Part shown: piece by piece, positions 13,990 to 63,555 of the stretch
Position numbering within the stretch: position 1 is the stretch's first letter
Layout of the letters: each line of letters opens with the position of its first letter
Assembly (NCBI GenBank): GCA_963771465.1
Contig: CAVYTU010000018.1
Location: 32,001-96,000 of the forward strand
Direction: 5' to 3'
DNA: 64,000 nt
Origin: an uncultured delta proteobacterium
Lineage (GTDB): Bacteria; Desulfobacterota; Binatia; UBA9968
The notes under the pieces: generated by a model
Told to the model about the DNA's origin: nothing
Databases searched by the model: none
Seen by the model: the letters and a program-made list of their open reading frames with translations, nothing else
Translations under genes and position numbers: made by a program

Positions 13990-13991
13990 TC

Positions 13992-36083: not shown

Positions 36084-36116
36084 CTCCGCGGCCGGCTACT
36101 CTCGGAGATAATTTAC

Positions 36117-36338
36117 ATGCAGAAAAATGCACTTCGGGATTTGCTGGCCTGCGCTCTCGCTCTAACGATATTTATGAACACGCCGCTAATGGCGCAGACC
36201 ATCAAAGTCGGCGGCGACGGAAGCGCATCGGCGCTGAACAAAAAGATCGTCGAGCGCCATGGCGGCAAAAACTGGGTCGAATCGGAACCAGGAAGAGGAG
36301 CGGCATTTTCTTCACGCTGCCAGCTTAATGCGACATGA
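36117..36338 (+). pseudogene. Chimeric remnant: binding-protein signal peptide fused to a histidine-kinase C-terminus
   Basis: Leader ..MAQTIKVGG joined to [23 protein letters not shown], with FTLP continuing in a shifted frame. Confidence 0.65.
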
Positions 36339-38509: not shown

Positions 38510-38512
38510 ACA

Positions 38513-40258: not shown

Positions 40259-40317
40259 ACGGGCTGAAGGGCGCTATTTAACGTCGGGTCGTTGGCGCGA
40301 GCCGACTTTCTAATCGC

Positions 40318-42510
40318 ATGGCCAAAATGCACGCTTCATTGATCGAACCGAACGCCGATACGGTTGGCGACCCGGTTAAAGTTCTCCTCATCGAGGACAA
40401 TACCGGCGACGCACGTTTGGTTTTGGAACTACTTAAAGATGCCGGCGGCGCGCTCTTTGAAGTTACCGATGCCGGTTCGCTTAAGGTTGGGATTGGCCAT
40501 CTCAAGGCAGCAAATTACGATGTCGTCCTGTTGGACCTCTCGCTGCCGGATGGCGTTGGCGTCGAAACCGTGGTTCGTCTCCTAGCCGAAGCGCCAGCGG
40601 TGCCGATCGTTGTCCTGACGGGGCTGGACGACGACCGATCCGCCGTCGATGCGGTGCGCAGCGGCGCGCAGGATTATCTCGTCAAAGGCAAATTCGACGG
40701 TCCGATGCTGGCGCGCGTGTTGCGCTACGCCATCGAACGCACGCGCGCCCAGCAGGCGCAAGCGCGCTACCAAGACCAGACGGCGCTGACCACGATTGCA
40801 ACGGCGGCTAGCCAGTCGCTTCAGCTTGAGGAGATGCTCGAGGTCGCGGTGGCAAAGGTGTTGGAAGTTACCGGATGTGAAATGGCGCATATTCGGCTGC
40901 GTAATCAGAAGACTGGGGAAATATCTTTGGCTGCCCACCGAGGGCTTACACCCGAGCGCGTTGATGCGCTACTCCAGCAGCAGCGGCCGTCGGCAGAACG
41001 CGATGAGATTTTCCGCACGGGAGAAGTCGTCATCCAACGCGAACCGGTGGTTAGGGCGCTTGAAAGCCAATCGGCCCAGATTACCGGTCGGGTCAGGGTG
41101 TGGATTCCTCTAAAGGCGAAAGGGAATGTTGTCGGTATCCTGACTATTGAAACGCTGCGCCGAGAAAAGTTTTCGCGCCGCGAAGTGGAGCTTTTAAAGG
41201 CCATCGGCAACGTCATCGGCGTCGGTGTCGAAAATGCCCGGCTGTTCACTGAGACGCGCCGCCAACTGGAACGCATCCAGGCGCTGCGTGATATCAGTGT
41301 AGCCACCGCTTCGAGCCTCAATCTGTCGCGCGTGCTAAAGATTTTGCTCGAAAAAATCGCCGTCGTCTTGCCGTATTCGGCGTTGGCCGTTCGATTGTTC
41401 GACAAAGCGAGCGGCGAATTGCGGCCCACCGTAGCATGGAATCTCGATCAGGAAGAATGGCAAGAGTCAGCCGGCAAAAACAGCGGCAGTGGGCTCTCGG
41501 CCGTTGTCTTCGAGAAAAAGAGTCCCTTGGCGATTCGCCAATTCTTGCACGATCCGCGCACTCGAAAGCCGGAGCTGTTCCGCCGTCAAGGCTTGGTTTC
41601 CTATTTGGGATTGCCGATGATCGCTAACGGCGAATGCGTCGGCGTGTTGTCGATCTCCACCAAATTCGAACATGAATTTCCCGAAGAGGAGATTCGTTTT
41701 CTTTCCGCGCTGGCCAACCAGGCCGGTATGGCGATCTATAATTCCCAGCTCTATGAGCATATTCAGGGGCAAGCGGCCGAGCTCGAACGGAGCAACAAGG
41801 TCAAAGACGAATTCCTCAGTGTCATGTCGCATGAATTTAGAACTCCGATTAACGTAATCCTGGGTTATTGCGAGCTGATCAAGAAACGAGTCTTGGGAGA
41901 AATCAATGCGGAGCAGGAAAACGCGGTGGCGAAGATCACAGATCGTTCTAAGGATCTCTTGGGATTGCTCTCGGCAATTTTAGAAGTGACTCGAATCGAG
42001 ACTAAGGACATGCGGGTGCTGGCGGAAACGTTCGACCTCAATGAATTCTTCGCTGAGTTCAAAACGAACCATGATCTACAGTTGGCCAAGGATGTGAGTC
42101 TTGAGTGGTGTGGCCCGGAGCAAGCAGTCGCGGTTAACACGGATCCGAGAAAGCTGCGGATCATTCTTGAGCAACTTTTCGCCAACGCCGTGCAGTTTAC
42201 GGAAAGCGGCAAGATCAGCGTCGCAGCAAATCGCAGCGCCGACGCCAAGCATTTTTATTTATCGGTGACCGATACCGGGATCGGCATTCCCGCAGAGTCG
42301 CGCGACGTCATTTTTGAAAAATTTACTCAGCTCGATGGCTCGTCGACCCGCGCGGTCGGTGGTATCGGCCTCGGTCTTTATCTGGTCAGAAATTTTGTCG
42401 CTATATTAGGCGGCGAGCTGCGGGTCGATAGCGGGGTTGGCGTCGGTTCCTCTTTCGCAGTGACGCTGCCAATCGACATCGAGTCGTCGCCCGTCTTGGT
42501 GGAACGCTAA
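40318..42510 (+). CDS. Hybrid kinase REC-GAF-GAF-HisKA-HATPase
   Basis: Receiver paralogous to the previous gene, two GAFs, MSHEFRTPI, DTGIGI, GIGLGL. Confidence 0.93.
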   Translation: MAKMHASLIEPNADTVGDPVKVLLIEDNTGDARLVLELLKDAGGALFEVTDAGSLKVGIGHLKAANYDVVLLDLSLPDGVGVETVVRLLAEAPAVPIVVLTGLDDDRSAVDAVRSGAQDYLVKGKFDGPMLARVLRYAIERTRAQQAQARYQDQTALTTIATAASQSLQLEEMLEVAVAKVLEVTGCEMAHIRLRNQKTGEISLAAHRGLTPERVDALLQQQRPSAERDEIFRTGEVVIQREPVVRALESQSAQITGRVRVWIPLKAKGNVVGILTIETLRREKFSRREVELLKAIGNVIGVGVENARLFTETRRQLERIQALRDISVATASSLNLSRVLKILLEKIAVVLPYSALAVRLFDKASGELRPTVAWNLDQEEWQESAGKNSGSGLSAVVFEKKSPLAIRQFLHDPRTRKPELFRRQGLVSYLGLPMIANGECVGVLSISTKFEHEFPEEEIRFLSALANQAGMAIYNSQLYEHIQGQAAELERSNKVKDEFLSVMSHEFRTPINVILGYCELIKKRVLGEINAEQENAVAKITDRSKDLLGLLSAILEVTRIETKDMRVLAETFDLNEFFAEFKTNHDLQLAKDVSLEWCGPEQAVAVNTDPRKLRIILEQLFANAVQFTESGKISVAANRSADAKHFYLSVTDTGIGIPAESRDVIFEKFTQLDGSSTRAVGGIGLGLYLVRNFVAILGGELRVDSGVGVGSSFAVTLPIDIESSPVLVER

Positions 42511-42753
42511 AGTCGGCGATCGCGGCGCTGGAATGATTCTATAATTCGCTGCCCGTAGTTGCCGACGGCTGTCAATTCGCTTCCAATGAAGCAATATCTC
42601 GCCATCACCAAGGCACGACTGACACGAAATTTCAGATTGCGGATTTACACCGCCGCATGCTCCGACAAGACTTGATCGTGAATAGCTTCCGCGCTTCTAG
42701 ATAAGCTTTCGCACTTGACCGAGTCATCCCGTCAACTCTATAGTTGCCTCATT

Positions 42754-43941
42754 ATGATTCGAGCTGGAGTGGGGCAGTCGAGCGACGTTTCGACCGCGCG
42801 GGCAGCGGCGGCGGCGATTGAGCAGGCGTTTGCGCAAGCGGGCACTCGACATGCGGACGCAGCGCTGGTCTTTTTTAGCGCCGAACATGGCGCGCCCGCA
42901 AGCGAATTGCCCGAAACCATTCGTCGGTTGGCTGGAACGGATCAAATTGCCGGCTGCAGCGCTGCCGGTGTGCTCACGGCGAACGGAGAAGTGGAAGGCG
43001 AACGCGGGCTTGCCGTGATGGTGTTGTCGTCGGATCAGCTTGAGTGTCGGCCATTGATGTTTAAGCCGCTGCGTGAACACGATGGCATTATTGGCGCCGA
43101 ACTCGCGGCGATCGCGGCGCCGACGGAAGCCTCGGGTTCGCTCCTGGCGCTGTTTCCTGATACTTACAACGGCCAGCCGCAGCGGCTGTTAGAAAGCCTT
43201 CATGACGAACGCGGATTTAGTCCCGTGGTCGGCGCCGGCGCGTCGGAAAATGGCACGGCGCAGGCGACCTATCAGCTGAGCAGCACAGGCGTGACCAGCA
43301 ACGCCGTGGCGGGCATGTATTTTAACGGCTCGTTTCAAACTCACATCGAAATTACCCAGGGTTGCCAGCCGATCACCGACTCGATGGTGATCACCAAAGC
43401 GGAACGAAATCTTATCTATGAGATCAACGAGCGGCCCGCGCTGGAAGTGTTTGCCGGCTTGCTCAAGGGGCCGCTCGCCGACGATCTGCGCCGCGCGCTG
43501 ATGGTCTTGTTCGTCGGCTTGCCGGCGGACCGCTTGATCAATAGCGTGGCGCCGGGCAAATATTTGATTCGCAACATCATCGGTATCGATCCCGACAAAG
43601 GCATACTCGGCGTCGCCGAAGCCGTGACCGAAGGCGAGTCGATTATTTTTGCCATGCGCGACGGCCAGCGCGCGCGCGACGACTTAAATCAAATGTTGCA
43701 ACGGCAGGTCAACAATCTCGGCGGGAGAAAGCCAGCCTTCGGCTTTTACTTCAATTGCTGCGCCCGCGGCAGCTCGCTCTACGGCATTCCCGGCATCGAT
43801 TCCGCTTACATCAAGCAGGCGCTCGGCGATTTTCCCTTGATCGGCATGTTCGGCGGCTATGAACTGGCGCCGCTCGGGCGCGCTAACCATTTATTCGCCT
43901 ATACCGGCGTGCTGGCGTTGATTACCGGCGAGGACGGCTGA
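42754..43941 (+). CDS. FIST-domain (FIST_N/FIST_C) sensory protein
   Basis: GCSAAG, VVGAGAS, QGCQPI, EINERPA, FNCCARG, GMFGGYE..HLFAYT. Confidence 0.92.
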   Translation: MIRAGVGQSSDVSTARAAAAAIEQAFAQAGTRHADAALVFFSAEHGAPASELPETIRRLAGTDQIAGCSAAGVLTANGEVEGERGLAVMVLSSDQLECRPLMFKPLREHDGIIGAELAAIAAPTEASGSLLALFPDTYNGQPQRLLESLHDERGFSPVVGAGASENGTAQATYQLSSTGVTSNAVAGMYFNGSFQTHIEITQGCQPITDSMVITKAERNLIYEINERPALEVFAGLLKGPLADDLRRALMVLFVGLPADRLINSVAPGKYLIRNIIGIDPDKGILGVAEAVTEGESIIFAMRDGQRARDDLNQMLQRQVNNLGGRKPAFGFYFNCCARGSSLYGIPGIDSAYIKQALGDFPLIGMFGGYELAPLGRANHLFAYTGVLALITGEDG

Positions 43942-44061: not shown

Positions 44062-45888
44062 TCAGCGTCCGACGCGCTTACGTTTGTTGTTGAGATAGTC
44101 GACCATTATGTAGTTGCCCATCTGGTCGGGGGTGGTGTAGAAGACCCGGCCGGTATTCATGCGTGAAAGCTGATCGACAAACCCCTGGCGGTAGTAATCG
44201 GCGCCGAGCATAAACGTGTTGATCGTGATGCCGCTCTGGGTGCAGCGCTTCACTTCCTTGAGTGTCTCGTGCACGATGCGGCCGTGCAGCATCGCCGAGC
44301 CCCAGCCACTGTGCAGACGGCCACCGCGATCAAGGGTCGCTGCGGTGGGCTCGCCGTCAGTGATCAAAATGATCTGCCGGTTGGCCGACCGATTCGTGCC
44401 CAGAAGCTGACGCGCAAAACGGAGCGCCTCCTTGATGTCGGTGCCATGCTCCATGAAATAGGTTAGCGAGACGATCGACGGCAGATCCTCGGCTTGAATG
44501 AGTTTGGCGTTGGAGCGAAAAGCGACCAGGTGCAAGGTGTCTTGCGGATATTTCGTTTGAATCAAGCGATGCAGCGCCAGGGCGACTTTCTTGCCCGCGT
44601 GGAGCGCGTCGTTCATCAACATCGAGTAGCTCACGTCAATCAACAACGCGGTTTCGGCGACCGTCGAATACTCGACCCGGTGCACGGAAAAATCTTCCGG
44701 ATGAATTCTCAGCGGCTCGCCTGGCTTGCGTCTCTCTAACGCATTGAGCACGGTCTCGCTGATATTGATGTTCATCGGGTCGCCATACTCGTAGAGTTTG
44801 GTTTCTTCCATGTGCTCGCCCTGGGCGCCGCGCGCCGACGTGTTGTGGTTCCCCCAGCGGCTTTTGTTGAGCATCTGAAAGATTTCGCGCAGCGCCTTGT
44901 CACCGATTTTGCGCATGCCTTTCGCCGTCAGCTTTAGACCGTGGCTGCCGCGCATGATGTAACCGTCGTCTTCGAGCATCTGCTCGACGTTCTGTAGATA
45001 TTTCAGATTCTCATAAGCTTCCTCGCCGAGCAGATCACGCAGCTCGTCGAGATTGAGCTCCGACGGATCGCCCATGCCGCGTTGTCCCCAACGCAAAAAC
45101 CGTTCGAGGCCGCGCATTTGGCTCAATATCTGTCCCGCTTCGCCCATGCCCATGCGTTGCGAACCTTGGAACGGGAACTGGTTCATCAGCTGTTCCAGCT
45201 GCTGCATTTGGCTCATCATCTCGCTCATCTGCTGCAGCTGCTCCTCGGTCATGTTGGCCATGTTTTCCAACATGCTTTCGAGGTTGTTGATGGCGTTGTC
45301 CATCATGCTCGGCAAATTGTTGAGAAAGTTCTCGTCTTTCAACAACTCGTTCATGCGGTCGAGCATGTCCATCAGCGACTGCGGATTCTGGCCGCCCATA
45401 TTCGATTGGCCCTGCGGCATGCCGCGCTCGTTGATCTGATTTTGCAGACGCTGCTGCAATTCTTGATAACGCTGATACGCCTCCTGCATCTTCTGATTCA
45501 TCTCGTCCATGCGGTCGGCGAACTTGCCCGACATGCGCTCCATGAAGTTGCGCATCTGTTCGTTGTAGGCTTCCATCTTCTCGGCGAGCTTGGCGAGTTT
45601 TTCGCTCAGCGCTTGCTGCTCTTCGGGTGTGAGCTTAAAAGAATCCGGGGAATATTTATTGAGCAGCTCGCGACGCTTCTCGTCGGCTTGGCGCAGGAAA
45701 TCGCGCATGCCTTTGACCGAACGCTGGCCGTCCTCTGAAGTGAAACCACGGCGCATCAGATCGCGCAGCGCGCGCCGGACGCCTTCTTCCTCGAGCAGGT
45801 GGTCAGAGAGCTGGTTGAGAATATCGTTGGTCGTCGGGAATAGAACCTGCTGCGTGCCGTCCCAATCGGTATAGCGATGAATTCTCAT
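44062..45888 (-). CDS. VWA-domain protein with long Met/Gln-rich coiled coil
   Basis: YTDWDGTQ N-terminus, LTAKG.R..G, YEYGD, MIDAS DVSYSM..T..ITDGEPT. Confidence 0.88.
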   Translation of the reverse strand: MRIHRYTDWDGTQQVLFPTTNDILNQLSDHLLEEEGVRRALRDLMRRGFTSEDGQRSVKGMRDFLRQADEKRRELLNKYSPDSFKLTPEEQQALSEKLAKLAEKMEAYNEQMRNFMERMSGKFADRMDEMNQKMQEAYQRYQELQQRLQNQINERGMPQGQSNMGGQNPQSLMDMLDRMNELLKDENFLNNLPSMMDNAINNLESMLENMANMTEEQLQQMSEMMSQMQQLEQLMNQFPFQGSQRMGMGEAGQILSQMRGLERFLRWGQRGMGDPSELNLDELRDLLGEEAYENLKYLQNVEQMLEDDGYIMRGSHGLKLTAKGMRKIGDKALREIFQMLNKSRWGNHNTSARGAQGEHMEETKLYEYGDPMNINISETVLNALERRKPGEPLRIHPEDFSVHRVEYSTVAETALLIDVSYSMLMNDALHAGKKVALALHRLIQTKYPQDTLHLVAFRSNAKLIQAEDLPSIVSLTYFMEHGTDIKEALRFARQLLGTNRSANRQIILITDGEPTAATLDRGGRLHSGWGSAMLHGRIVHETLKEVKRCTQSGITINTFMLGADYYRQGFVDQLSRMNTGRVFYTTPDQMGNYIMVDYLNNKRKRVGR

Positions 45889-46025
45889 TTGTCACCGACT
45901 ATAGCGCAGTTTGGGATTCTGTCAAAGCCCAAGTGGCGTATTGGCGCCGCCGCTTTGGCGTCCTTCTTGCGCCCTTTGGAATTGCTCGCAACTTCATATA
46001 AATAATGACTCAATATTGGAGCACA

Positions 46026-47135
46026 ATGAAGGACTTTGACTATGTCATCATCGGCGCGGGATTTGCGGGGGCGGCGACCGCTTATCATTTGGCGCGTGCC
46101 GGCGTGAGCCGGATCTTGCTCGTGGAACAAGAGAGCATCCCAGGGTTTCATTCGTCGGGACGTAACGCGGCGATGCTGCGCCAATGCGTATCCGAGCCGG
46201 ATCTCACCGACCTGGCGCGTGCCGGCGCGGCGTTTATTCATCATCAACCGACCGATTGGCCGGAGCCAGTGTCATTCAAACAAAATGGCTCGCTGCTCCT
46301 CGCCAGCGACGCCGGCTGGGACAAGCTCCAGCGCGATGCCGAGATTGGCCGGCAATCCGGTATCGGCGGTATCGAGCTGTGGACCCCCGACCAGGCAAAA
46401 CGCCATGTGCCGCTGCTCAAGCAGGCCGAGTTCGACGGGGCGTTGTGGTGCAGCACGGACGGTATCGTCGACATCCACGCGCTGCTTTCGGGTTATTTAA
46501 AATACGCCGCCGGCAAGGGTGCTGAGATTCGTTACAATTGCGCGGTTCAAGCGGTGAACCATAATGGCGGTGATATCGAGATATCGACGAATACCGGCGT
46601 CGCCAAAGCCAAGGTGTTGGTCAACGCCAGCGGCGCCTGGGCCAATGTTGTGGCGAGATTGGCCGGCGCCACCGAGTTGCCGCTCAAACCTTGCCGGCGC
46701 CATTTGTTTGTCTCGCCGCCGCTCGATTGGGTCGATCGCTCCTGGCCGTTTGTCTGGGACGTCTCGCACGATATTTATTTTCGTCCGGAAGGCGATGGTT
46801 TGTTGCTCTGCGCCTGCGATCAGACTGAGTTGGCTCCCGGCGATCCGCCGGTGGACGAAAGCGTCAGGGAAATGCTGGCGGAAAAGATCGACCGTTACAT
46901 GCCGGCGCTGGGCGATGTCAGTATCGCCAAAGGTTGGGCCGGTATTCGCACGCTGACACCGGATGGCCGTTTCGTCATCGGCTGGGACCCGCAGGTGGAT
47001 AATTTCTTTTGGGTGGCTGGACTTGGCGGTCATGGGATGACCACCAGCGCGGCGGTGGGCGAGCTGGCGGCGCAGTTGCTGATCGGTGGGCGCGGAAAAA
47101 AATCGGCGCCGTTTGCGCCGGAGAGATTCGCCTGA
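46026..47135 (+). CDS. FAD-dependent oxidoreductase (D-amino-acid/glycine/sarcosine oxidase family)
   Basis: IIGAGFAG, SSGRNAA, NASGAWA, WAGIRTLTPDG, GLGGHG. Confidence 0.92.
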   Translation: MKDFDYVIIGAGFAGAATAYHLARAGVSRILLVEQESIPGFHSSGRNAAMLRQCVSEPDLTDLARAGAAFIHHQPTDWPEPVSFKQNGSLLLASDAGWDKLQRDAEIGRQSGIGGIELWTPDQAKRHVPLLKQAEFDGALWCSTDGIVDIHALLSGYLKYAAGKGAEIRYNCAVQAVNHNGGDIEISTNTGVAKAKVLVNASGAWANVVARLAGATELPLKPCRRHLFVSPPLDWVDRSWPFVWDVSHDIYFRPEGDGLLLCACDQTELAPGDPPVDESVREMLAEKIDRYMPALGDVSIAKGWAGIRTLTPDGRFVIGWDPQVDNFFWVAGLGGHGMTTSAAVGELAAQLLIGGRGKKSAPFAPERFA

Positions 47136-47169
47136 GGATGGAGTCAAGATGCGTTGGAGTATTGGAGTA

Positions 47170-47532
47170 ATGGAGCGTCGGACTAATGGCAAGATCAAAA
47201 TAGCCGCCGCGATGATTGCGTTGGCGGGTTGGTTCATGGCGCATGGCATTTGCCAAGCGGCGCAACCGGCCAAAGTGAGAATCTCTTATTCGAGCCGGAG
47301 CAACTCGATCACGCCGTTTCAGATCGCCCTCAACAAAGGCTTTTTCGCCGAGGAAGGTTGGGACGTGGAGATGATTCAGGTCAATCCACGGTTCGGCGCC
47401 ATTTCGCTCAGCCGCAACGGCGAGATCACCGATCATGAATGGGATATGCTGACGGAAAAAAGGAAGCCGGTGGACGAGGTGCGCGACTTCACGCTGCTGC
47501 GGGACGTGCAAAAAGAATTGAAACTACGTTAG
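47170..47532 (+). pseudogene. Internally deleted NMT1/SsuA-type substrate-binding protein
   Basis: Signal peptide and KVRISY..IALNKGFFAEEG.DVEMIQ N-terminus join in frame to the C-terminal ..V.DFTLLRDVQKEL; only 120 aa versus 311-338 aa for the intact paralogs in the window. Confidence 0.75.
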
Positions 47533-47566
47533 TGCTGAAGCGCTGTCGCAAGCGAGGAGCAAGACC

Positions 47567-48340
47567 ATGAATATCGAGCGCGGCAAGAAATATTCGCCGC
47601 AAGAAGCCAAGGCGATCGTCGACGGACTTTATGCTAATGTCCGCGAGCGCTGGGAGGAGCGGGTCAATCAACAGCCGTTCATGCAGCAGTTGATGGGGGG
47701 GAAGTTACCGCTTCGGACCTTGCAGATTTTTTTTCGCAACTGGGGCGCCTATACCATCGAGATCAACACGCTGACCGCTTGCACCTATCATCGCAACATT
47801 ACTTTTTTGAAAGTGAACCGCGACCTCATGGGACCCATCGGCGAGAAGATCGCCGACGAGTTCATCCATCCCAAGCCGCCGGGCCATTTCCTGGTGATGA
47901 TGGAAACGGCAAAAGCGTTTGGCTTGAGCGAAGATGAAGTGTTCACTTCGTCGATGCTGTCGGAGTTCCGCGGCAAGATCGATTTCATGCGCGGCATCGT
48001 TTACGAGGGTAGCGCGGCCGAGTGGTATGCGGCGGTGACGACCGAGGAGCAAATCGGCCATTGGTCGGCGGCTTGTTACAAAGCGCTGACGACACACTAC
48101 GGCTTTGACCGCGCCAAGGCGACATACTTTGCAACTCACGTCGAAGCCGACCTCGAAGAGCATGAAGCAGGAGTGATGGGTCATGCCAGCTTCAACCGCA
48201 TGGCCTTGCAACGTTTGTTGGAAACCGGCATGGCCGATGAGCGGCCCACTTATGGCTTGGAATACTGCGCCATGACTTCGGTGGATTTGCACGGTGCGAT
48301 GCTGCGCTCGGCGTTGGAAGAGGCGGAGCGAGGGAATTAA
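47567..48340 (+). CDS. Heme-oxygenase-like (PqqC/CADD/TenA fold) iron-containing redox protein
   Basis: PF....GKL N-terminus, DEF-x6-H..A.AFGL, TTEE, YFATHVEAD...H metal-ligand pattern. Confidence 0.75.
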   Translation: MNIERGKKYSPQEAKAIVDGLYANVRERWEERVNQQPFMQQLMGGKLPLRTLQIFFRNWGAYTIEINTLTACTYHRNITFLKVNRDLMGPIGEKIADEFIHPKPPGHFLVMMETAKAFGLSEDEVFTSSMLSEFRGKIDFMRGIVYEGSAAEWYAAVTTEEQIGHWSAACYKALTTHYGFDRAKATYFATHVEADLEEHEAGVMGHASFNRMALQRLLETGMADERPTYGLEYCAMTSVDLHGAMLRSALEEAERGN

Positions 48341-48455
48341 GAGATTAACCACAAGGTTCGGACACGGAAATTTAACCGCAAAGCTTGTCCTGAGCAAATG
48401 TGAAGGAACTGGCATCGCGCAAAGAACGCAAAGCGAAAAAACTTCGGAGGTTTCC

Positions 48456-49382
48456 ATGATGGAACAAGTTAGAGGCGTGGTGCTGCCGAGTCCGACGGTG
48501 TTTCGCGAGGATGGCAGTGTCGATGAGACGTTGATGCGCGAGCTGACCGACTGGTTTGTCGCTTGCGGCGTGCATGCATTCTTTGTTCTCGGTTCTTACG
48601 GTCAGGGGCCGGCGCTCCATCCGGCGGAACGCAAGAAGGTTGCCGAAATTATCGTCCAGCAAGTGAAGCATCGGGTGCCTGTGGTCGTGCACATCGGCGC
48701 GGTGGATCCGTTTACGGCGATCGAACTCGGCAAACATGCCCAATCGATCGGCGCCGAAGCGGTCGGCCATGTCGGGCCTTATTACTACGCCGACCGTTCG
48801 GAGTATGAAATTATCGAGCATTTGAAGATGGTCGACCGCGCCCTCGGCATGCCGATGCTGATTTATAACAACCCGCGTTATTCCGGTTACAACATTCATC
48901 CGTCGTTCATGGCGAAATTGATCGAAGCGGTGCCGAATATTTTCGGCGCCAAGCTCGCCATGGGCAGTGTCGACGAAGCGATGGCTTATATGAAATTCGT
49001 CAAGGCGCCGTTCGCCCCTTACGCGCTGGCGAGCAATCTGGTCTCGGCCATGTCGGTGGGCGTCGCCGGCACGATCAGCCCGCCGCTGGCGGTGACGCCG
49101 GAGATCGGTGTCGCACTAGTTCGCGCCATCGATGCCGGCGACGCGGCGCGTGCATTGGCGCTGCAAAAAGACGTGATTCGTATCCACGATATATTTCTCC
49201 GTCTCGCCGGCCCGTTCGGCCGGACGATTTACTGTGAAGCGATGCGGCTGCGCGGCTTTGACGTGAAAATGTATCCGCGCTGGCCGTCCAAGCCGCTCAG
49301 CCGGGAAGCATATGATGAGCTGCACGATTTATTCACCGAGTTAAAAATTATCGGCACCCCGGCGCAGGCAAAGAGCGCGTGA
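48456..49382 (+). CDS. DapA/NAL-family class I aldolase
   Basis: PTVFREDG.VD, GSYGQG, YNNP, Schiff-base Lys in FGAKL. Confidence 0.9.
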   Translation: MMEQVRGVVLPSPTVFREDGSVDETLMRELTDWFVACGVHAFFVLGSYGQGPALHPAERKKVAEIIVQQVKHRVPVVVHIGAVDPFTAIELGKHAQSIGAEAVGHVGPYYYADRSEYEIIEHLKMVDRALGMPMLIYNNPRYSGYNIHPSFMAKLIEAVPNIFGAKLAMGSVDEAMAYMKFVKAPFAPYALASNLVSAMSVGVAGTISPPLAVTPEIGVALVRAIDAGDAARALALQKDVIRIHDIFLRLAGPFGRTIYCEAMRLRGFDVKMYPRWPSKPLSREAYDELHDLFTELKIIGTPAQAKSA

Positions 49383-49401
49383 TGCCAGAATTCGAAAAAC
49401 G

Positions 49402-50337
49402 ATGAAACAGTTGGTTTTTCTTACTCTGCTGCTGTTGAATCTCGCCACCGCCGACGCCGCACTTGCGCAAGAGCGCGTTCGCATGGCGTTGTCCGTGCGC
49501 AACGTGGTTTTCCTGCCGTTCTATTACGCGCGCGATCTCAAGATCTTCGACAGGCACGGCATGAATGTCGAGCTGATCCAGATGCGCAGCGACTTGCAGA
49601 TGGCCGGCTTGGTGTCGGGCGAGATCGATTACACGCCGGCAATCGGACCGGCGACTTATCCGGTGGCCAATGGCGCGCCGATCAAGGGCGTGGCGGTGCT
49701 TTACAAAGCGCCGCTGTTTTCTCTGGTGAGTTCGCCGAGCATTACCACTGCTAGGGAACTCGAAGGCAAGAAGGTTGCCGTGTCGCGCATTGGATCGGAT
49801 AGCCATCGCTTCGGTTCGCAGATGCTCGAACTCGGCGGCGCCGACCCCAAGAAGGTTACGTTCATTCAGACCGGCAACACCACCGTGAGTCTGACTTCGT
49901 TGCAACAAGGCGTGGTCAACGGCGCGGTGCTCAGTCCGCCGTTCACCGGCATCGTCGCCGAAAAGGGCTACCGAGTCCTGGTGCGCAGCCGGCAACTGAT
50001 CGATTCGCCTTGGCTGGGTTTAGTCGCGAACAAACATAAATTGGAAAAGCAGCCGGAGCAGGCACGCAACATGTTGCGCTCGATGCGCGATGTCATCGCC
50101 GCGATCCGGCGTGATAAACCGGCAGTGGTGAATTACATCGTCAAGAATTTCAATGTCAGCGTGGCCAACGCCACCGAGTCTTACGACGATATCGCCGGCG
50201 TGATCATCGATACGATGAGTATGCGCGATGAGCAGATGCAAAAGTATCTCGACGGCTTCCACCAACGCGGCGAGTTGCCCAAGCCGGTGAGCGCCAGCGA
50301 GATGTTCGACTTTTCGCTGCTGCGCAGCTTGAAATGA
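49402..50337 (+). CDS. NMT1/SsuA-type ABC substrate-binding protein
   Basis: Signal peptide, G..VELIQ, LVSGEID, LEGKKVAVSRIGS, FDFSLL. Confidence 0.9.
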   Translation: MKQLVFLTLLLLNLATADAALAQERVRMALSVRNVVFLPFYYARDLKIFDRHGMNVELIQMRSDLQMAGLVSGEIDYTPAIGPATYPVANGAPIKGVAVLYKAPLFSLVSSPSITTARELEGKKVAVSRIGSDSHRFGSQMLELGGADPKKVTFIQTGNTTVSLTSLQQGVVNGAVLSPPFTGIVAEKGYRVLVRSRQLIDSPWLGLVANKHKLEKQPEQARNMLRSMRDVIAAIRRDKPAVVNYIVKNFNVSVANATESYDDIAGVIIDTMSMRDEQMQKYLDGFHQRGELPKPVSASEMFDFSLLRSLK

Positions 50338-50391
50338 CCTCGACTCGGGCCACGCATTCTGAGATCGACACCAGTCAAGGAACCAGCACCA

Positions 50392-51861
50392 ATGGCCATC
50401 ACCACGCATGAACATGGCGGCCACGGCGATCACGGCCATGATCACGAAGGCGCGGTCGGGCCGCACACGCATCTGACCAGCGTCGGCATCGACATCGGTT
50501 CGTCGACCTCGCACCTGATGTTCTCTCAGCTGCTGATCGGCTATCCCTCGGTGCTGCAACGAAAGCCGATGGTGCTCGAACGCAACGTGATCGCGCGCTC
50601 GCCGATTCTACTGACGCCGTTTTCCGGTGATTGGAACATCGAAGCCGGACCGCTCATGCGATTGGTCGATGCGACGTTTGACGAAGCGGGCTTGACGCGG
50701 GCCGATATCGATACCGGCGCGGTGATTATCACCGGCGAGGCGGCGCGGCGCGATAACGCGGCGAAGATCGCCCAGCTGTTTGCCGACGAGAGCGGGAAAT
50801 TTGTCTGCGCCACGGCCGGGCCGACGTTGGAAACGATCATGGCGGCCCATGGTTCGGGCGCAGTGCAGCAGAGCCGCGAGCTGGGATTGACGTTGCTCAA
50901 TATCGACGTGGGCGGCGGCACGACCAAGATTAGCTTGATCCAGGAAGGCAAAATTCGCGGCACCACGGCGGTCAACATCGGCGCGCGCTTAGTGGCGTAT
51001 AACGGCGCTGGGGAAATGATCCGCTTGGAAAAAGGCGGGCGGCGCTTTCTCGCCGCACTCGGAGAGCATCTCGACTTTGGCGCCAAGGTGTCGCCAGCAT
51101 TGCGCGAAGCGCTCGCGAGCCGCATGGCTCATGCGCTGTTCCATGCGCTGACGACGGGGAAGCCGCCTTGGGATGATTTTTTCGTTTCTCCCAGACTGGC
51201 AACGTTGCCGAAGATCGACGGCATTCTTTTTTCCGGCGGCGTGTCGGAATATATTTACGCGCGCGAGCGCGATTCATTCGGCGATCTCGGGCCCTATCTT
51301 GGCCGGCAAATCAGACGCGAAGCGGAGCAGCGCGGCTTTACGATTCTCGAAGCGGGCGAAGGTATTCGAGCCACCGTGATCGGGGCGTCGCAATACACCG
51401 TACAGTTGAGCGGCGAAACCATCTTCGTGCCGCATAATTTACGACTGCCGGTGCGCAATCTCCGCGTCTTTGTGGTTCACGCGAGCTGGGAAGAGCCGGT
51501 GGCCGAGCGAGTCGAGCAGGCGGTGATGCAGATTCTCGGCGAGCGCGATCCTGAAGTGCGCGGCGCGCCATTTGCGCTGGCGTTTTCAACCCCGCCGTTC
51601 GTCGGTTACGGCGCAGTGCAAAACATGGCTCAGGGCATCGACCGCGCCTTTGCGCGCCTTGACCATGATGACCGGCCGGCGGCGTTGGTTTTTGGCCAAA
51701 ACGTCGGCCAAGTGGTCGGTGGCATGCTTTCGGCGAAATGGAGCATGCCTTGTATAGACGAGGTGATACTGTCGGAGTTGGACTTCATCGATATCGGCGA
51801 GGTGGTTCCGGAAGAAGGCTTTGTGCCGGTGGTGATCAAGAGTTTGGCGTTTGGAGTATGA
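50392..51861 (+). CDS. eutA: EutA-like reactivating-factor ATPase (ASKHA fold) with N-terminal His-rich tail
   Basis: SVGIDIGSSTSH, TGAVIITGE, FVCATAG..LE..AAHGSG, NIDVGGGT, FSGGVSE, GIRATVIGA, LDFIDIG..VPVVIKSL. Confidence 0.88.
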   Translation: MAITTHEHGGHGDHGHDHEGAVGPHTHLTSVGIDIGSSTSHLMFSQLLIGYPSVLQRKPMVLERNVIARSPILLTPFSGDWNIEAGPLMRLVDATFDEAGLTRADIDTGAVIITGEAARRDNAAKIAQLFADESGKFVCATAGPTLETIMAAHGSGAVQQSRELGLTLLNIDVGGGTTKISLIQEGKIRGTTAVNIGARLVAYNGAGEMIRLEKGGRRFLAALGEHLDFGAKVSPALREALASRMAHALFHALTTGKPPWDDFFVSPRLATLPKIDGILFSGGVSEYIYARERDSFGDLGPYLGRQIRREAEQRGFTILEAGEGIRATVIGASQYTVQLSGETIFVPHNLRLPVRNLRVFVVHASWEEPVAERVEQAVMQILGERDPEVRGAPFALAFSTPPFVGYGAVQNMAQGIDRAFARLDHDDRPAALVFGQNVGQVVGGMLSAKWSMPCIDEVILSELDFIDIGEVVPEEGFVPVVIKSLAFGV

Positions 51862-51877
51862 CCGAGAAGGAGGACCT

Positions 51878-52585
51878 ATGGATTTAGTCAAAGATCTTTG
51901 TGCGACGTTGGATAAGATGGTGAACGATCAGTTCGAGAGCGTCGAGTTCAAGAACTTTCTCGCCGTGCCGCTCACCATGGAACGCGGCCGTTTTTATGTC
52001 GTGCAGAACGCGCTTTATACGAGCAACCGGCGTGACTGTTGGGGCTATGTTCAAGGCGGCGCGCCGTTGGAGGTGAAGCGGGTCATTTGGGCGCACGAAA
52101 GCGACGAATTGATCAATGATCCGCGCGCCGGGATGGATCATTACGCATTGACGGTGAAGCAGGGCGAAGTGATTGGACTCAAGCCCGAAGATTTCGAGAA
52201 AGCTGAAGTTCCAGCCATGGTGCAGGCATGCTTCCACGCGTGGCATCACATCGCCATGCGCAATCATTGGCTGTCGGCCTATACGGCGTCGCATATGCTC
52301 GAGCGGCGTAACAACGGCAAGATCGTCAAAGGCGGCGGCATGTCGTACCGGGTCGGTAAAAAATTTGAGAACGAGCTCGGCATTAACTTAAAGCGCATGA
52401 TCTCGCTGGACGTGCACGTCGTCGCCGACATGGACCATTCGGAGAATATTTCCGAGATGTTCGAGCGCTATGTCAAAACGCCCGAAGACTGCGAGCGGGT
52501 ACTTCTCGGCGCGCGCGATTCGATGGCCATCGACCGCGCCTACCGCGGCGCGCTGGGCTATTATATGGAGCAGATATCGGGTTGA
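51878..52585 (+). CDS. Heme-oxygenase-like (CADD/PqqC fold) iron-containing redox protein
   Basis: DEL-x8-H, LER, H-x3-D-x2-H (HVVADMDH); AGGAGG-like RBS before ATG 51878. Confidence 0.75.
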   Translation: MDLVKDLCATLDKMVNDQFESVEFKNFLAVPLTMERGRFYVVQNALYTSNRRDCWGYVQGGAPLEVKRVIWAHESDELINDPRAGMDHYALTVKQGEVIGLKPEDFEKAEVPAMVQACFHAWHHIAMRNHWLSAYTASHMLERRNNGKIVKGGGMSYRVGKKFENELGINLKRMISLDVHVVADMDHSENISEMFERYVKTPEDCERVLLGARDSMAIDRAYRGALGYYMEQISG

Positions 52586-52803
52586 CCAAGGTGATTGCAC
52601 TGCGGCAGCATTAATTGGGTTTCCAAAGGAGCGAGCACCCCTTTGCGATAGTTTAATCAGCGGCGGGGTTAAAACCGCGCCGTGGTCCTTCGTCCCGCGG
52701 AATTAACTTGTCGAGTCGCCCACCCTGGATCGGATTACTGCTCGACTAATCGGCGCTCATTATGCTATAAAGCGGAAACTCGAAAATTTTCTACTATCGG
52801 CGA

Positions 52804-53190
52804 ATGACCCGGCGAAAACCTTCAAAACAAGCAAATTTGCCTGCGGAAGCGGGCATGACGCTGTTAGAATTACTCGTCGTCGTAGCGGTGGTAGGGATTC
52901 TCGCCTCGATCGCGATTCAACAGGTTTCACTTTATCGGGCGCGGGCGTTCGATGCTTCGATGCGCTCCGATCTCAAGAACGCGGCGCTAGCGATGGAAAG
53001 TTACTACGGAGAATTCCTCGAATATCCGAACACGCAAGCCGCGATCCTGTTAGTCGGCTACCGAAATACCAGCGGCGTTTCGCTGACCATCAACGTCACT
53101 TCTCCATCAACCTTTACTCTGACAGCAGCGCGCCCGAACGGCAGCCAGTTGAGTTTTACCTACGACAGTACGACAGGTCTGATTAACTGA
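52804..53190 (+). CDS. Type IV pilin-like protein
   Basis: Prepilin cleavage G|MTLLE plus hydrophobic helix, SDLKNA..ESYY..YP. Confidence 0.88.
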   Translation: MTRRKPSKQANLPAEAGMTLLELLVVVAVVGILASIAIQQVSLYRARAFDASMRSDLKNAALAMESYYGEFLEYPNTQAAILLVGYRNTSGVSLTINVTSPSTFTLTAARPNGSQLSFTYDSTTGLIN

Positions 53191-53209
53191 ATACGCGCCT
53201 TTCGCTTCG

Positions 53210-53632
53210 ATGATAATCGAAATCGCTTCGCCCGTCCCGGCGAATTCACTGAATCTAACTTCTCGCCGTTGGCGGCGGACAATCGCGGCTCGCGGTTACT
53301 CACTTATCGAGCTGCTGGTTGTGATCGCGATTATCTCGATTCTAGCTGCGGTGGCGGTGCCGCAGTTTATTGCTTATAAGGCGAGATCAATGGACGCTGT
53401 AATGCATTCGGATTTAAAGAATGCGGCCCTTGCCGCGGAATCATACTATGCCCTTTACCATTATTATCCCTCTTCCGTTGCTGTGCTGACCGCTTCGGGG
53501 TACGTGTCCAGTCCTGGGGTTGGAGTGACGATTACTATACTAACACCAACCTCATACACGGTTACCGCGTTGGCTTCTGGCGGCACCCAACCAAGTTTTA
53601 CTCTGGATAGTGTGACCGGAGTGATCAATTAG
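53210..53632 (+). CDS. Type IV pilin-like protein (tandem paralog)
   Basis: G|YSLIELLVVIAII.ILAA.A.PQF.AY, SDLKNA..ESYY..YP. Confidence 0.9.
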   Translation: MIIEIASPVPANSLNLTSRRWRRTIAARGYSLIELLVVIAIISILAAVAVPQFIAYKARSMDAVMHSDLKNAALAAESYYALYHYYPSSVAVLTASGYVSSPGVGVTITILTPTSYTVTALASGGTQPSFTLDSVTGVIN

Positions 53633-53668: not shown

Positions 53669-54400
53669 CTACTTCGCCGTGCGTAGAAAGTAAGTCTGAC
53701 CGGTGACGTATTTCGCCGCGTCGGAGAGCAGGTAACGGACCAGGCCGACGATCTCGAACTTGTGCGTGAGGCCGTCCATTAGCGGTGGGATTTCTTCCCG
53801 TTTCTTGAATTGATCCGGCGTGAAACCGATGCGCGACATCGGCGTATCGGTGGCGCCGGGGCAAACACAGTTGACCGTGATGTTGTTCGGTGCCAACTCC
53901 ATGGCGAGCGATTTCGTGAAGGCGATGACGCCGGCTTTTGACGCCGCGTAGTGCGCCGAGCGCGCCTGGCCGACAACGCCGCGGCCCGAGGCGATACTGA
54001 GAATTCTCCCTTCGTTGCGTGGCAGCATGTGCTTGGCCGCGGCTTGAGCGCAGAGAAACACGCCTTTCAAATTGATGCGCATCAAACGATCCCACATTTC
54101 CTCCGGCATCTCGACGACCGCCATGCGGTCCATCACGCCCGCGCCGCAAAAAACATAATCGACATGAGCATACTTGGCGACTGCATGGTCCATCATTGCC
54201 GCGACACTTTTGGGATCGCCGACATCGACTTGTACAGCGATGGCGCTGCCTTTATTGGTGTTGATCTCCGCGGCAACTTTTTCCGCGGCGTCCTTGGCGA
54301 AATCCGCAACCACCACGTTCAATCCGTCGGCGGCCATGCCGCGGCAGATTTCCGAGCCGATGCCGCCGGCGCCGCCGGTGACGAGAATCGTTTTGCTCAT
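53669..54400 (-). CDS. Short-chain dehydrogenase/reductase
   Basis: TGGAGGIG, YAASK, VCPGATDT, YVTGQ. Confidence 0.93.
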   Translation of the reverse strand: MSKTILVTGGAGGIGSEICRGMAADGLNVVVADFAKDAAEKVAAEINTNKGSAIAVQVDVGDPKSVAAMMDHAVAKYAHVDYVFCGAGVMDRMAVVEMPEEMWDRLMRINLKGVFLCAQAAAKHMLPRNEGRILSIASGRGVVGQARSAHYAASKAGVIAFTKSLAMELAPNNITVNCVCPGATDTPMSRIGFTPDQFKKREEIPPLMDGLTHKFEIVGLVRYLLSDAAKYVTGQTYFLRTAK

Positions 54401-54486
54401 ATCGCTTGCGCTCCAATCAAATATTTGTGCCGACGCTATCACTGGCGATTATCGCCGGTCAACTTGTACCACCTATAGAAGGCTCC

Positions 54487-54790
54487 ATGGATTACGATCT
54501 GAACGTCATCGGCGGCCGCACCGCGGGCATCAATGCGGCTAAGGCGGCGAATAAGCGTGCCATCGTCGAGCAAGAGAATTTTGCCGGCACCTGCTGCGCG
54601 CCAGAAGGGTCTCTTCACTGCTGGAACTATTGTGCCGAGAAGTTCGTTATCGCCACAGGTTGCAAGCCAGCGCGGCCGGCGCCCCGGCGTGGAGTTGGGC
54701 AAGGCCAGCGATGCATTGATTCACTTGAAAGAGCCACCAAAGCGTCTGGTTGTTGTCGGCGGAGCGATTTTCGACAGCCTGGCGAGTTGA
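54487..54790 (+). pseudogene. Decayed pyridine-nucleotide-disulfide oxidoreductase (Lpd/MerA/Gor family)
   Basis: MDYDL.VIGG..AG..AA, VE....GTC, A.KFVIATG..P, then in another frame SD....LKEPPKRLVVVGG; the segments between these motifs are deleted. Confidence 0.75.
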
Positions 54791-54815
54791 CCAAAAAAGG
54801 ATTAAACCGGGCAAC

Positions 54816-56141
54816 GTGAAGCATAGCGACGAGCGCGACAAAACAATTTATCCCGCACTCATCTTGGGGCTGACGACCGCCGCGTTGATTATTGCCAAGA
54901 CCGGGCGCGACGCGTTATTTTTCCAGGGCAAAGGGATCTTTCAACTGCCGGTGGCGACGATGACGATCGCCGCCGCGTCATTGCCGTTGGCGATCCTGTT
55001 CGTCAAGGTCATGAAGACTTGGGGCGCGCGACCGGCCCGGATTGCGATCATGCTGTTTGCCGCCGGGGTGCTGACGCTCACGGCGCCGTTTCTCCAAGCC
55101 GGCGATTCCACCTTGTTGTTTAATGTCTTCATCTTCATTCCCGCTGTTTTCGGCATCATGTTCGCGAGCCTGTGGTTGCTCGCCAGCGATATCTTCGATA
55201 AAACAGCCAAGCCTGATGCGGCGCGCGCTTTTAGCAAGATCGGCGCAAGCTCGCTCGCCGGCGGCATGGCCGGCGGCTTTATTGCCAAGGGACTTGTGCC
55301 GCTAGTCGAACCGAAATGGCTGATTTTCACCGGCGCGCTGATGATTCTCGCGGTGGTCGGCTTGGTCGTGCAAGCGCACAGGAGGTTTCCTACCAACATC
55401 GCGCCCAAGCGGGATCGCGACAACAAAAAGAGCGGTTACTTCGCGCCGCTATCGAAACCCTATACCGTTACGCTCCTTTTCATTGCCATGACCGGCGCTC
55501 TCGCCGGGTTGCTGATCGACGTGCAGTTCTACATTTCCGCCACCGGCGCAAGCATGGGATCGAAAGGCAACGCAAACTTCTTCGCCAATTTTTACATCAT
55601 GCTCAATTTCAGCTCTTTGCTGTTGCAGCTCTTTGCTACGCCAAAGATTCAAGACAAGATCGGCGTCGGCGGTGGACTAATGGTCTTGCCATTCGCGCTG
55701 ATCGGCGGCGCGGGCTTCGCCAGCGCGGCGGCGACGGCGTTCAGTTTGGCGGTGCTGCGCGTGACCGAGGGCGGCCTGCGCTCCTCGGTGCACCGTTCGA
55801 TCTGGGAGCAAGCGTTTATCCCAGTCGATTCGAGCGAGCGCTCCCTAGTAAAAATCGCCGTCGACGGCGTCGGCGCGCGCATCGCGGAGGGCATCGGCGC
55901 CTTCGCGCTTTACATCTGGGTGCAACGAGTCGCGCCCGGCGGCGTAGTCAGCGCGCCGCTCAACACCGTTTGGATGGCTTGGCTCACCTTAGCAACCGTG
56001 ATTGTTTGGCTTTACATCACGCAACGGCTGCGTGCTCAGACGGAACCGGCAAAAGCGCGAGCGGCCGCGACCGAACTAGAATGCCAACGATTCCCCGATC
56101 AATGCCCGTGCACGACCGAACTGGGTAAAGGCATCGCGTAA
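54816..56141 (+). CDS. NTT/TLC (ATP/ADP translocase-like) MFS transporter
   Basis: AKTGRDALF, WLLASDIF...A.RAF..IG, many TMs, R.S....EQAFIPV...R..K..VD; GTG start inferred. Confidence 0.78.
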   Translation: MKHSDERDKTIYPALILGLTTAALIIAKTGRDALFFQGKGIFQLPVATMTIAAASLPLAILFVKVMKTWGARPARIAIMLFAAGVLTLTAPFLQAGDSTLLFNVFIFIPAVFGIMFASLWLLASDIFDKTAKPDAARAFSKIGASSLAGGMAGGFIAKGLVPLVEPKWLIFTGALMILAVVGLVVQAHRRFPTNIAPKRDRDNKKSGYFAPLSKPYTVTLLFIAMTGALAGLLIDVQFYISATGASMGSKGNANFFANFYIMLNFSSLLLQLFATPKIQDKIGVGGGLMVLPFALIGGAGFASAAATAFSLAVLRVTEGGLRSSVHRSIWEQAFIPVDSSERSLVKIAVDGVGARIAEGIGAFALYIWVQRVAPGGVVSAPLNTVWMAWLTLATVIVWLYITQRLRAQTEPAKARAAATELECQRFPDQCPCTTELGKGIA

Positions 56142-56283
56142 AAAGTCTTGCTCACCGCGAAGGCACGGAGTGGAAGATTTGGAAAATTAAGAGTCCCACC
56201 TTCATGTCCTTCGTGGTAAGATTCCTCTTCGCGCCCCGCGCTGTCATTTGACAATTGCCCGCGTCTACCCGTAACTTCGCGCC

Positions 56284-61425: not shown

Positions 61426-61543
61426 AAGAAAAAATCATGCGCAATGTCAGTTGTCTCTATGCGTGATTCCATAATAGCTCCACTTGAACAATCTCCAATG
61501 TGTCGAACGCGTTTTTCAAACTTCGGCAAAGAATAATCGACCT

Positions 61544-63481: not shown

Positions 63482-63495
63482 CGTAAAAGATCGAT

Positions 63496-63552
63496 CCGTT
63501 CAAATCGTCAAGCGCTCGCCCTCGGTTCCAGCCGTTTAAGCCGTTGAAGCGG
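63496..63552. repeat. Second copy of the GTTCAANNN 9-bp-period intergenic repeat
   Basis: CCGTTCAAA..GGTTCCAG CCGTTTAAG CCGTTGAAG. Confidence 0.55.
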
Positions 63553-63555
63553 AAG

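Follow-up and report, generated by a model that had tools for sequence, protein, structure and literature searches.

An EutA-family ATPase with a His-rich tail, linked to putative dimetal heme-oxygenase-like enzymes and not to eutBC, in a Binatia-type bacterium

HypB, UreE and SlyD are His-rich metallochaperones, XylT-type ferredoxins reactivate a dioxygenase, and the Fe(II) ring-cleaving dioxygenases inactivate by oxidation. EutA has been described as the protein that uses ATP to remove damaged cofactor from ethanolamine ammonia-lyase (accessible text of PMC5821096). The heme-oxygenase-like dimetal oxidases (HDOs; CADD, UndA, BesC and SznF are examples) are defined in the accessible part of a 2026 review by a 3-His/3-carboxylate motif on core helices alpha1-alpha3, and the same text describes many of their metal clusters as labile owing to a flexible core helix alpha3 (PMC13108848). 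Here we describe a locus in which an EutA-family ATPase gene stands beside genes for putative HDOs. It lies in a 64,000-nt stretch, hereafter the window, from an uncultured delta proteobacterium assigned to the Binatia (assembly GCA_963771465.1, contig CAVYTU010000018.1, positions 32,001 to 96,000); positions given below are those of the window unless another locus is named.

The ATPase gene (50392..51861) is followed directly by the gene of a heme-oxygenase-like (HO-like) protein, HO2 (51878..52585), which carries a ribosome-binding site (AAGGAGG) upstream of its ATG at 51878. In the window's own clade of related loci, EutA-like and HO2 genes were found together in 7/7 loci that have sequence downstream of the ATPase, in addition to the window itself. 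Because the order EutA-like then HO2 recurs in all seven, the arrangement is more than chance.

The two genes close a run of seven co-oriented open reading frames (ORFs) on the plus strand at 46005-52585, with intergenic gaps of 10-115 nt. The run begins with a DAO-family FAD-dependent amine oxidase or dehydrogenase (46005..47135, alternative start 46026; PF01266 over the full length, E=1.5e-77), followed by the remnant of an NMT1-type substrate-binding protein (SBP; 47146..47532, within a listed ORF from 47086 that reads as 148 aa; weak PF09084 match, E=1.1e-3). The CADD-like HO-like protein 1, HO1, comes next (47567..48340; TENA_THI-4 1e-7, Haem_oxygenas_2 9.5e-7), then a class I aldolase-like protein of the DHDPS/NAL family (48456..49382 from its likely start, in an ORF listed from 48294; PF00701 3e-48) and a secreted NMT1/SsuA-type SBP with an N-terminal signal-like hydrophobic segment (49402..50337; PF09084 1e-16). 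HO2 itself resembles CADD and BesC (PF14518 4e-11). An earlier note, made from the sequence alone, had listed these seven genes and the span that they occupy, and the ORF and Pfam analysis agrees with it. None of the enzymes of the cluster scored above an equivalog cut-off of NCBIfam. A promoter scan returned 4 candidates against a mean of 4.0 in shuffled sequence, i.e. none above expectation, and a terminator scan found no terminator-like site in the gap 3′ of HO2.

By its sequence, the ATPase reads as a true EutA-family protein, yet not as a canonical one. Pfam and the public annotation pipelines label it EutA, its residues 27-487 cover positions 2-474 of the 475 of the PF06277 profile (E=3.4e-110), and it aligns with E. 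coli EutA (b2451) over 472 aa at 32% identity, with the ASKHA motifs common to both. The phosphate-1 (G32, G36, T39), phosphate-2 (D172, G174-G176) and adenosine (G282, G283) residues are all invariant in an alignment of 42 sequences that extends down to 37% identity. All four EutA equivalog models of NCBIfam were nevertheless missed, with scores against cut-offs of 293/598, 240/769, 194/952 and 193/799 bits. A listed homologue (P0001) is 94% identical to the window copy. What sets the window protein apart from EutA is its sub-cut-off scores, its non-heme metal enzyme neighbours and a His-rich N-terminal extension.

This extension comprises residues 1-27 (HEHGGHGDHGHDHEG..GPHTH) and is kept among close homologues, as judged on every sixth of 120 of them. 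E. coli EutA has no such N-terminal extension when aligned to the window ATPase. Among the 150 best 50%-cluster representatives of the family, 137 have an evaluable N-terminal extension (median 30 aa), which holds at least 3 His in 68/137 and at least 5 His in 41/137; all 8 HO-linked rows of our tree, window included, have at least 5. The tail fits a metal-handling role, with metal binding itself putative, and to that extent agrees with the proposal of the earlier note that the EutA fold has been repurposed around a metal enzyme. A start of the form M/V-H-D/E, often with H-x-H a few residues on, occurs in 17/150 of the representatives and is reminiscent of HypA, whose N-terminus M-H-E forms a nickel site. 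As in HypB, UreE and SlyD, the tail stands next to a nucleotide-hydrolysing domain, and as with the XylT-type ferredoxins a possible helper gene lies beside a putative O2-activating non-heme iron enzyme; those helpers have a GTPase or ferredoxin fold, whereas the window ATPase is an ASKHA protein.

Unlike the eut operon, neither the window nor the related loci carry eutBC, microcompartment or B12 genes near the ATPase. A profile search of genome contigs matched at least 604 stretches, of which 582 were confirmed as relatives and the best 80 kept, yielding 79 loci, each with as much as 10 kb of flanking sequence. These loci are the nearest relatives of the window ATPase, and canonical EutA falls outside the sample. 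With E. coli K-12 EutB and EutC as queries, tblastn at E<=1e-3 found no match in the window and none in the 79 loci; E. coli EutA matched all 80 sequences. Pfam found no EutB/EutC and no named B12 enzyme family among 40 window ORFs (nine ORFs shorter than 160 aa were left out), and no EutB/EutC among 116 representatives of unlabelled genes that stand at most two genes away from the ATPase, so that the absence of eutB and eutC claimed in the earlier note extends to the relatives. When the window and the eight loci of its clade were scanned with Rfam, no family reached its gathering score, and therefore no cobalamin or thiamin pyrophosphate (TPP) riboswitch is present there; a relaxed scan of 45500-53000 returned only a chance snoRNA match (E=0.35). 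EutQ of E. coli is a cupin, and we considered whether the cupins that accompany many of the relatives might echo the eut operon through it. This idea was rejected, as a partial E. coli EutQ gave 0 tblastn matches in the window and the 79 loci.

The 79 loci fall into two sets by the identity of their ATPases to that of the window: 63-83% in L001-L008 and 37-44% in the other 71. The first set comes from metagenome-assembled genomes (MAGs) named Binatia or 'delta proteobacterium', some of them probably mis-binned, and the second from MAGs labelled Binatia, Chloroflexota (including Dehalococcoidia and SAR202), Alpha-, Beta- and Deltaproteobacteria and a few others. ORFs in these loci were called with our own picker, overlaps being settled by similarity across loci, then clustered and labelled by BLAST to Pfam-checked reference ORFs, and the labels are approximate. 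A quick maximum-likelihood tree of the ATPases (LG+G4, SH-aLRT support only, with the single long branch of E. coli as root) groups the window with L001-L008 at a support of 100, in a clade nested among relatives linked to cupins. Its sister is the long-branched L064, with the order DHDPS, DHDPS, cupin, EutA-like; the order of events is uncertain because of the root of the tree and the long branches.

Within this clade gene content varies around the ATPase and HO2. L002 and L004 have the fullest order: DAO, (SBP), HO1, DHDPS, SBP, PhnD-like SBP, EutA-like, HO2′, HO2 and bicupin, HO2′ being a second HO2-type gene and the bicupin a two-cupin protein (363-369 aa in these two loci). L007 has DAO, EutA-like, HO2′, HO2 and bicupin; L008 only DAO, EutA-like and HO2; and L005 EutA-like, HO2′, HO2 and bicupin up to the contig end. 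L006 is rearranged (PhnD-like SBP, bicupin, EutA-like, SBP, HO2, DHDPS, small cupin, HO1), the left side of L003 is truncated, and the contig of L001 ends at the ATPase stop. HO2′ is thus present in 5 clade loci and the bicupin in 6, and the DAO gene in 5/8 (L001, L002, L004, L007, L008) and in the window. The module of HO1 and the DHDPS-like aldolase is shared by the window, L001, L002, L004 and L006, and HO1 is absent from L005, L007 and L008. HO1 and the aldolase are therefore an optional module, and the constant partner of the ATPase is HO2. Compared with its nearest relative L002, whose ATPase is 83% identical, the window is without the PhnD-like SBP, HO2′ and the bicupin. In L003 the PhnD-like SBP and EutA are read in one 837-aa ORF, which corresponds to two separate genes in L004.

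In the subfamily at large, the ATPase is most often accompanied by the bicupin and not by an HO-like protein. HO-like genes are confined to 8/79 loci (L001-L008), and a Cupin_2 protein of 330-420 aa adjoins the ATPase in 44/79 loci and occurs anywhere in 52/79. Bicupins make up 48/154 of the adjacent genes and 28/909 of the non-adjacent ones, an odds ratio of 14 whose p-value is not a true probability because the loci are related to one another. The conserved co-occurrence assumed in the earlier note stands for EutA-like and HO2 within the clade, but not for the subfamily, where the bicupin that is missing from the window takes this place. In two-cupin size and in its H-x-H...H motif the bicupin is like the gentisate 1,2-dioxygenases; the likeness is weak (PDB 3bu7, 2.3e-8; gentisate/5-aminosalicylate dioxygenase models of NCBIfam, 1e-8), and it differs from them in lying far under the family cut-offs, in carrying the His motif in its C-terminal cupin, and in being always paired with an EutA-like gene. 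In full, the motif Y-x-K-x-H-x-H...H-x-H is conserved in the C-terminal cupin of 46 sequences.

Other genes recur beside the ATPase as well, namely Lactamase_B_5 (5 loci), Amidohydro_2 (4), UbiD (3; best match phenylphosphate carboxylase beta, under cut-off) and a NicO-like metal transporter (3). Altogether, a neighbour with a metal fold of these kinds stands beside the ATPase in 60/79 loci. The subfamily has as its constant feature an EutA-type ATPase, often His-tailed, beside a metal-dependent enzyme whose fold varies by clade. Two extra cupins were recovered among the unlabelled neighbours, one in L052 and a small one that follows NicO in L031. In L031, L037, L044, L020 and L063 the order is UbiD-family decarboxylase, EutA-like, NicO-like metal transporter and small cupin, and these loci come from MAGs of Rhodospirillaceae and other Alphaproteobacteria. 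L009, L010, L017, L019, L021, L026, L035, L036 and L050, which form one clade, have the EutA-like gene beside a Lactamase_B_5 protein and divergent from a set of DUF4175, TPR/peptidase-MA and MoxR AAA genes. In several loci (L040, L027, L046, L051) the EutA-like gene is present two or three times, every copy accompanied by a bicupin of its own, and in L027 three consecutive bicupins lie ahead of one ATPase. An apparent cupin-EutA fusion in L078 (an 898-aa ORF) was discarded: it is an Arg-rich read-through in the wrong frame, Pfam finds EutA only, at 424-898, and the real start is the Met of MHD...

Both HO-like proteins look like dimetal HDOs, with metal binding and O2 activation predicted. 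The AlphaFold2 model of HO1 has a mean pLDDT confidence of 91, and its best Foldseek matches are CADD (8vag/1rcw, TMt 0.84-0.88), followed by PqqC, TenA and UndA. HO2 was modelled less well (pLDDT 78, one good model of five), and matched CADD, 3dde and apo-BesC with E about 1e-4 and TM about 0.7. Alignments indicate that each protein holds a full 3-His/3-carboxylate ligand set: E77, H88, E142, H180, D184 and H187 are invariant in 44 homologues of HO2, and E98, H107, E160, H191, D195 and H199 in 46 homologues of HO1, where E198 is in addition kept in at least 90%. The HO2′ paralogues and the L006 copy, which is 50% identical, likewise retain the six putative ligands of HO2, and a phmmer alignment pairs H107, E160, H191 and D195 of HO1 with the corresponding positions of CADD. 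Fold and predicted ligands thus agree with the earlier note, which had called both proteins HO-like metalloenzymes. HO1 departs from the described HDOs in having H-x3-D-x3-H, not H-x3-D-x2-H, together with the extra near-invariant Glu, and the likeness of both proteins to the family, in helical HO-like fold and in ligand pattern, goes with an identity of just 14-19% to any solved HDO. The HO2 model is of low confidence at 75-80, 147-151 and 179-186; the last of these, its least confident stretch, coincides with the H180-D184-H187 segment, and this uncertainty over the alpha3 ligands may be compared with the flexible alpha3 described for the family (accessible text of PMC13108848). No linkage of an HDO to an ATPase such as that of HO1 and HO2 is reported in that same text.

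The two HO-like families are narrow, with at least 481 and 604 matches at E<=1e-3; among the 120 best clusters listed for each, identities are 85-96% for HO2 (96% to P0121) and 67-95% for HO1 (95% to P0241). JGI labels homologues of HO1 'PQQ biosynthesis protein C', and an atlas search with HO2 returned only unnamed 'iron-containing redox enzyme' clusters. The TENA_THI-4 score of HO2, 20.6, is under the cut-off of 22 (E 4e-4). HO1 and HO2 have no detectable similarity to each other (BLASTP E=0.35, hhalign probability 0.14). We rejected the idea that they are recent paralogues or an obligate pair, on this ground and since their co-occurrence is broken in L005, L007 and L008. The (hetero)dimer of the two proposed in the earlier note is therefore not supported: HO1 travels with the aldolase, and the usual neighbour of HO2 is HO2′. 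HO2′ lies between the ATPase and HO2 in the relatives (L002 11597-12313, L004 11362-12078, L005 11542-12258, L007 11663-12376), shares 39-44% identity with HO2 and retains the six putative ligands; neither the window nor L008 contains it. An N-R-R-D-C-W motif is strictly conserved and common to HO2 and HO2′.

The remaining genes of the run are consistent with the uptake and breakdown of a small molecule. The best NCBIfam matches of the DAO-family protein are N-methyl-Trp oxidase, sarcosine oxidase beta and ThiO, all far under their cut-offs. The SBP remnant is a genuine deletion derivative, as the earlier note had stated: by blastn against L002, window 47401/47404 joins L002 5277/5877, so that ~597 nt have been lost, in frame, relative to the 315-aa SBP of L002. 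The PF00701 match of the aldolase covers residues 60-348 of the long ORF, and the protein falls under the DapA, NanA, KDG-aldolase and HpaI-type cut-offs (dapA 112.6 vs 206). A Lys in the context FGAKLAMG and a Tyr in IYNNP are visible in its translation and resemble the Schiff-base Lys and Tyr motifs. The intact SBP at 49402-50337 matches SsuA_fam at 1.7e-14, under cut-off, and Pfam found no membrane or ABC component beside it within 46005-52585. NMT1-type SBPs seem abundant in this genome.

The island is bounded by the same genes in the window, L002, L004 and L008. On the left stands a divergent VWA-domain protein (44062..45888, minus strand; VWA_2 5e-10), which is in the same place in L002, L004, L007 and L008, and on the right an SDR oxidoreductase (53669..54442, minus strand; adh_short 2.4e-59), in the same place in L002, L004 and L008. 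Between HO2 and the SDR gene the window has two tandem type IV pilin-like genes (52804-53632, plus strand; prepilin N-methylation motifs, weak ComP_DUS matches), which occupy the site of the bicupin in relatives. Upstream, at 35628-43941 (+), lies a signalling run of a response regulator, a PAS histidine kinase, two REC-GAF hybrid histidine kinases and a FIST protein with a weak match to the nitric oxide sensor NosP; the FIST and VWA genes keep their synteny with the island in L002, L004 and L008. Further away, ~23 kb upstream (7501-22979, +), two giant genes encode a hybrid assembly line of lipopeptide type that joins nonribosomal peptide synthetase (NRPS) and polyketide synthase (PKS) modules, the first of 2,162 aa (C-A-T-C) and the second of 2,995 aa (KS-AT, aminotransferase, C-A-T, TE). 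No NRPS or PKS gene was found among the called ORFs of the clade loci, of which those up to two genes from the ATPase were scanned with Pfam. Downstream are two tandem MFS/TLC-like (ATP/ADP-translocase-like) transporters with weak scores (54750-57666, +) and, up to the window edge at 60409-63942, an NMT1-type SBP, a large DctM-type TRAP permease and a TAXI-like SBP fragment.

We propose that the ATPase may be an ATP-driven loader or reactivator of metal centres that serves labile non-heme metal enzymes, and by analogy with EutA we give this reading a probability of about 0.4. The mode of action would be borrowed from EutA, whose ATP-driven removal of spent cofactor is its described role (accessible text of PMC5821096): the ATPase would open a partner metalloenzyme and exchange or reload a labile or oxidised non-heme metal centre, and the His-rich tail would hold the metal. 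The client here would be HO2, and in the relatives HO2, HO2′ and the bicupin. Because EutA removes the spent cofactor of its client, the same job on non-heme metal centres is the most economical reading. The island would then be a variable, lineage-specific oxidative gene set of this Binatia-type bacterium between the VWA and SDR genes, with a core of the EutA-family ATPase and the putative HDO HO2, usually with the DAO flavoprotein, and with HO1, the DHDPS-like aldolase and the SBP as the optional module. The combination of SBPs, a flavin amine oxidase, HDOs and a pyruvate-type aldolase suggests the catabolism of an amine or amino-acid-like acid, and most of the HDOs characterised act on amino acids or amines (PMC13108848, accessible part). 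As a plausible sketch only, the pathway probably degrades an amine or amino-acid-like organic acid by oxidation: the substrate would be imported, oxidised or fragmented by the HDO, oxidised at an amine by the flavoprotein and split by aldol cleavage to pyruvate.

Several points weigh against the proposed loader or reactivator. Adjacency fits a catalytic role as well as it fits a chaperone role, the His-rich tail is found in only about half of the subfamily, and 19/79 loci have no metal-fold neighbour beside the ATPase. Metal-dependent folds are common in catabolic clusters, and since the 79 loci are also phylogenetically related, the enrichment overstates their independence. The window is without the bicupin and HO2′, so that part of the presumed clientele is missing, and HDOs are not known to need a helper, as the terms chaperone, ATP and reactivat- do not occur in the accessible text of the HDO review (PMC13108848). 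The neighbours were called with a home-made ORF picker and BLAST labels, and some may be mis-called. Predictions of a complex between the EutA-like protein and HO2 scored 0.00 in two runs made without controls, and have no weight either way. In a literature search that covered subscription journals thinly, nothing was found on EutA outside eut loci, on EutA beside cupins or HDOs, or on ATP-dependent helpers of HDOs or of Fe(II) ring-cleaving dioxygenases.

The doubt over adjacency leads to an alternative that we hold to be unlikely without dismissing it, namely that the ATPase is itself a catalytic ASKHA enzyme, such as a kinase, a substrate activator or a subunit of a (de)carboxylase, which works on the small molecule of its neighbours while the tail is incidental or binds a catalytic metal. 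Its ATP-binding motifs are invariant, consecutive enzymes of a pathway are expected to be just as tightly linked, and the neighbours in distant loci have the look of aromatic or organic-acid catabolism (UbiD, Amidohydro_2, Rieske LigXa-like, dienelactone hydrolase, BenE, TctABC, MFS). Yet the fold of the partner changes from bicupin to HDO, metallo-beta-lactamase (MBL) fold and UbiD while the ATPase stays ~40% identical, which is easier to understand for a protein helper, and a His-rich N-terminal extension is typical of metal-handling proteins such as HypB, UreE and SlyD. The only activity characterised in the family, moreover, is the release of cofactor from a protein (PMC5821096, accessible text). 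More improbable still is that the window cluster is a decaying remnant which lost its ancestral function along with the bicupin, the HO2 paralogue and two SBPs. The in-frame deletion in the first SBP and the absence of the PhnD-like SBP, HO2′ and bicupin of L002 and L004 would be expected of such a remnant; the six other ORFs are however intact and have near homologues (HO2 96%, HO1 95%, EutA-like 94%), the ribosome-binding site of HO2 is retained, and L008, with the same flanks, is independently minimal in having DAO, EutA and HO2.

Two readings that take the annotations at face value appear very improbable to us. The ATPase carries the name EutA in Pfam and in the public pipelines, and it might be a classical reactivase whose client, ethanolamine ammonia-lyase or another adenosylcobalamin enzyme, is encoded at a different place in the genome; the ATPase would then stand in this cluster by coincidence. 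Against this stand the lack of EutB/EutC in the 64-kb window and in all 79 loci with their flanks, the lack of a cobalamin riboswitch, the missed equivalog cut-offs and the conserved linkage to HO2 or bicupin. The cluster might equally be read as one for thiamin or pyrimidine salvage or for pyrroloquinoline quinone (PQQ), with the HO-like proteins as TenA thiaminase II or PqqC, the DAO protein as ThiO and the SBPs as ThiY-like. TENA_THI-4/PQQC matches (HO1 1e-7, HO2 at the E-value given above), SBPs of the NMT1/THI5 family, the JGI label on the homologues of HO1 and a ThiO match of 6.6e-28 all lend themselves to it. That ThiO score amounts to 98 bits against a cut-off of 251, however, a TPP riboswitch is lacking, and the Pfam scan of 40 window ORFs turned up no further thi or pqq family. 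TenA and PqqC are also metal-free, whereas both HO-like proteins carry apparently full metal-ligand sets and match best the dimetal proteins CADD and BesC.

The branch of ATPases to which the window copy belongs is large, undescribed, non-B12 and often His-tailed, and its commonest neighbour is a 3-His bicupin. The family comprises 2,161 50%-clusters at E<=1e-3; those that match the window ATPase at E<=1e-10 still number 1,516, and since the nearest 79 loci are all without eutBC, much of the family is probably mis-annotated as 'ethanolamine utilisation'. It is possible, if rather doubtful at present, that His-tailed EutA-like proteins are widespread reactivases or metal-loaders of O2-activating non-heme enzymes, 3-His bicupin dioxygenases in most cases and HDOs here, and that the B12 EutA is one specialised offshoot of a general family of chaperones for cofactor exchange. 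If the loading or reactivating role of the ATPase is true, it would offer a means of obtaining HDOs and bicupins in active form in vitro, and the concept of the reactivase would reach beyond B12 enzymes.

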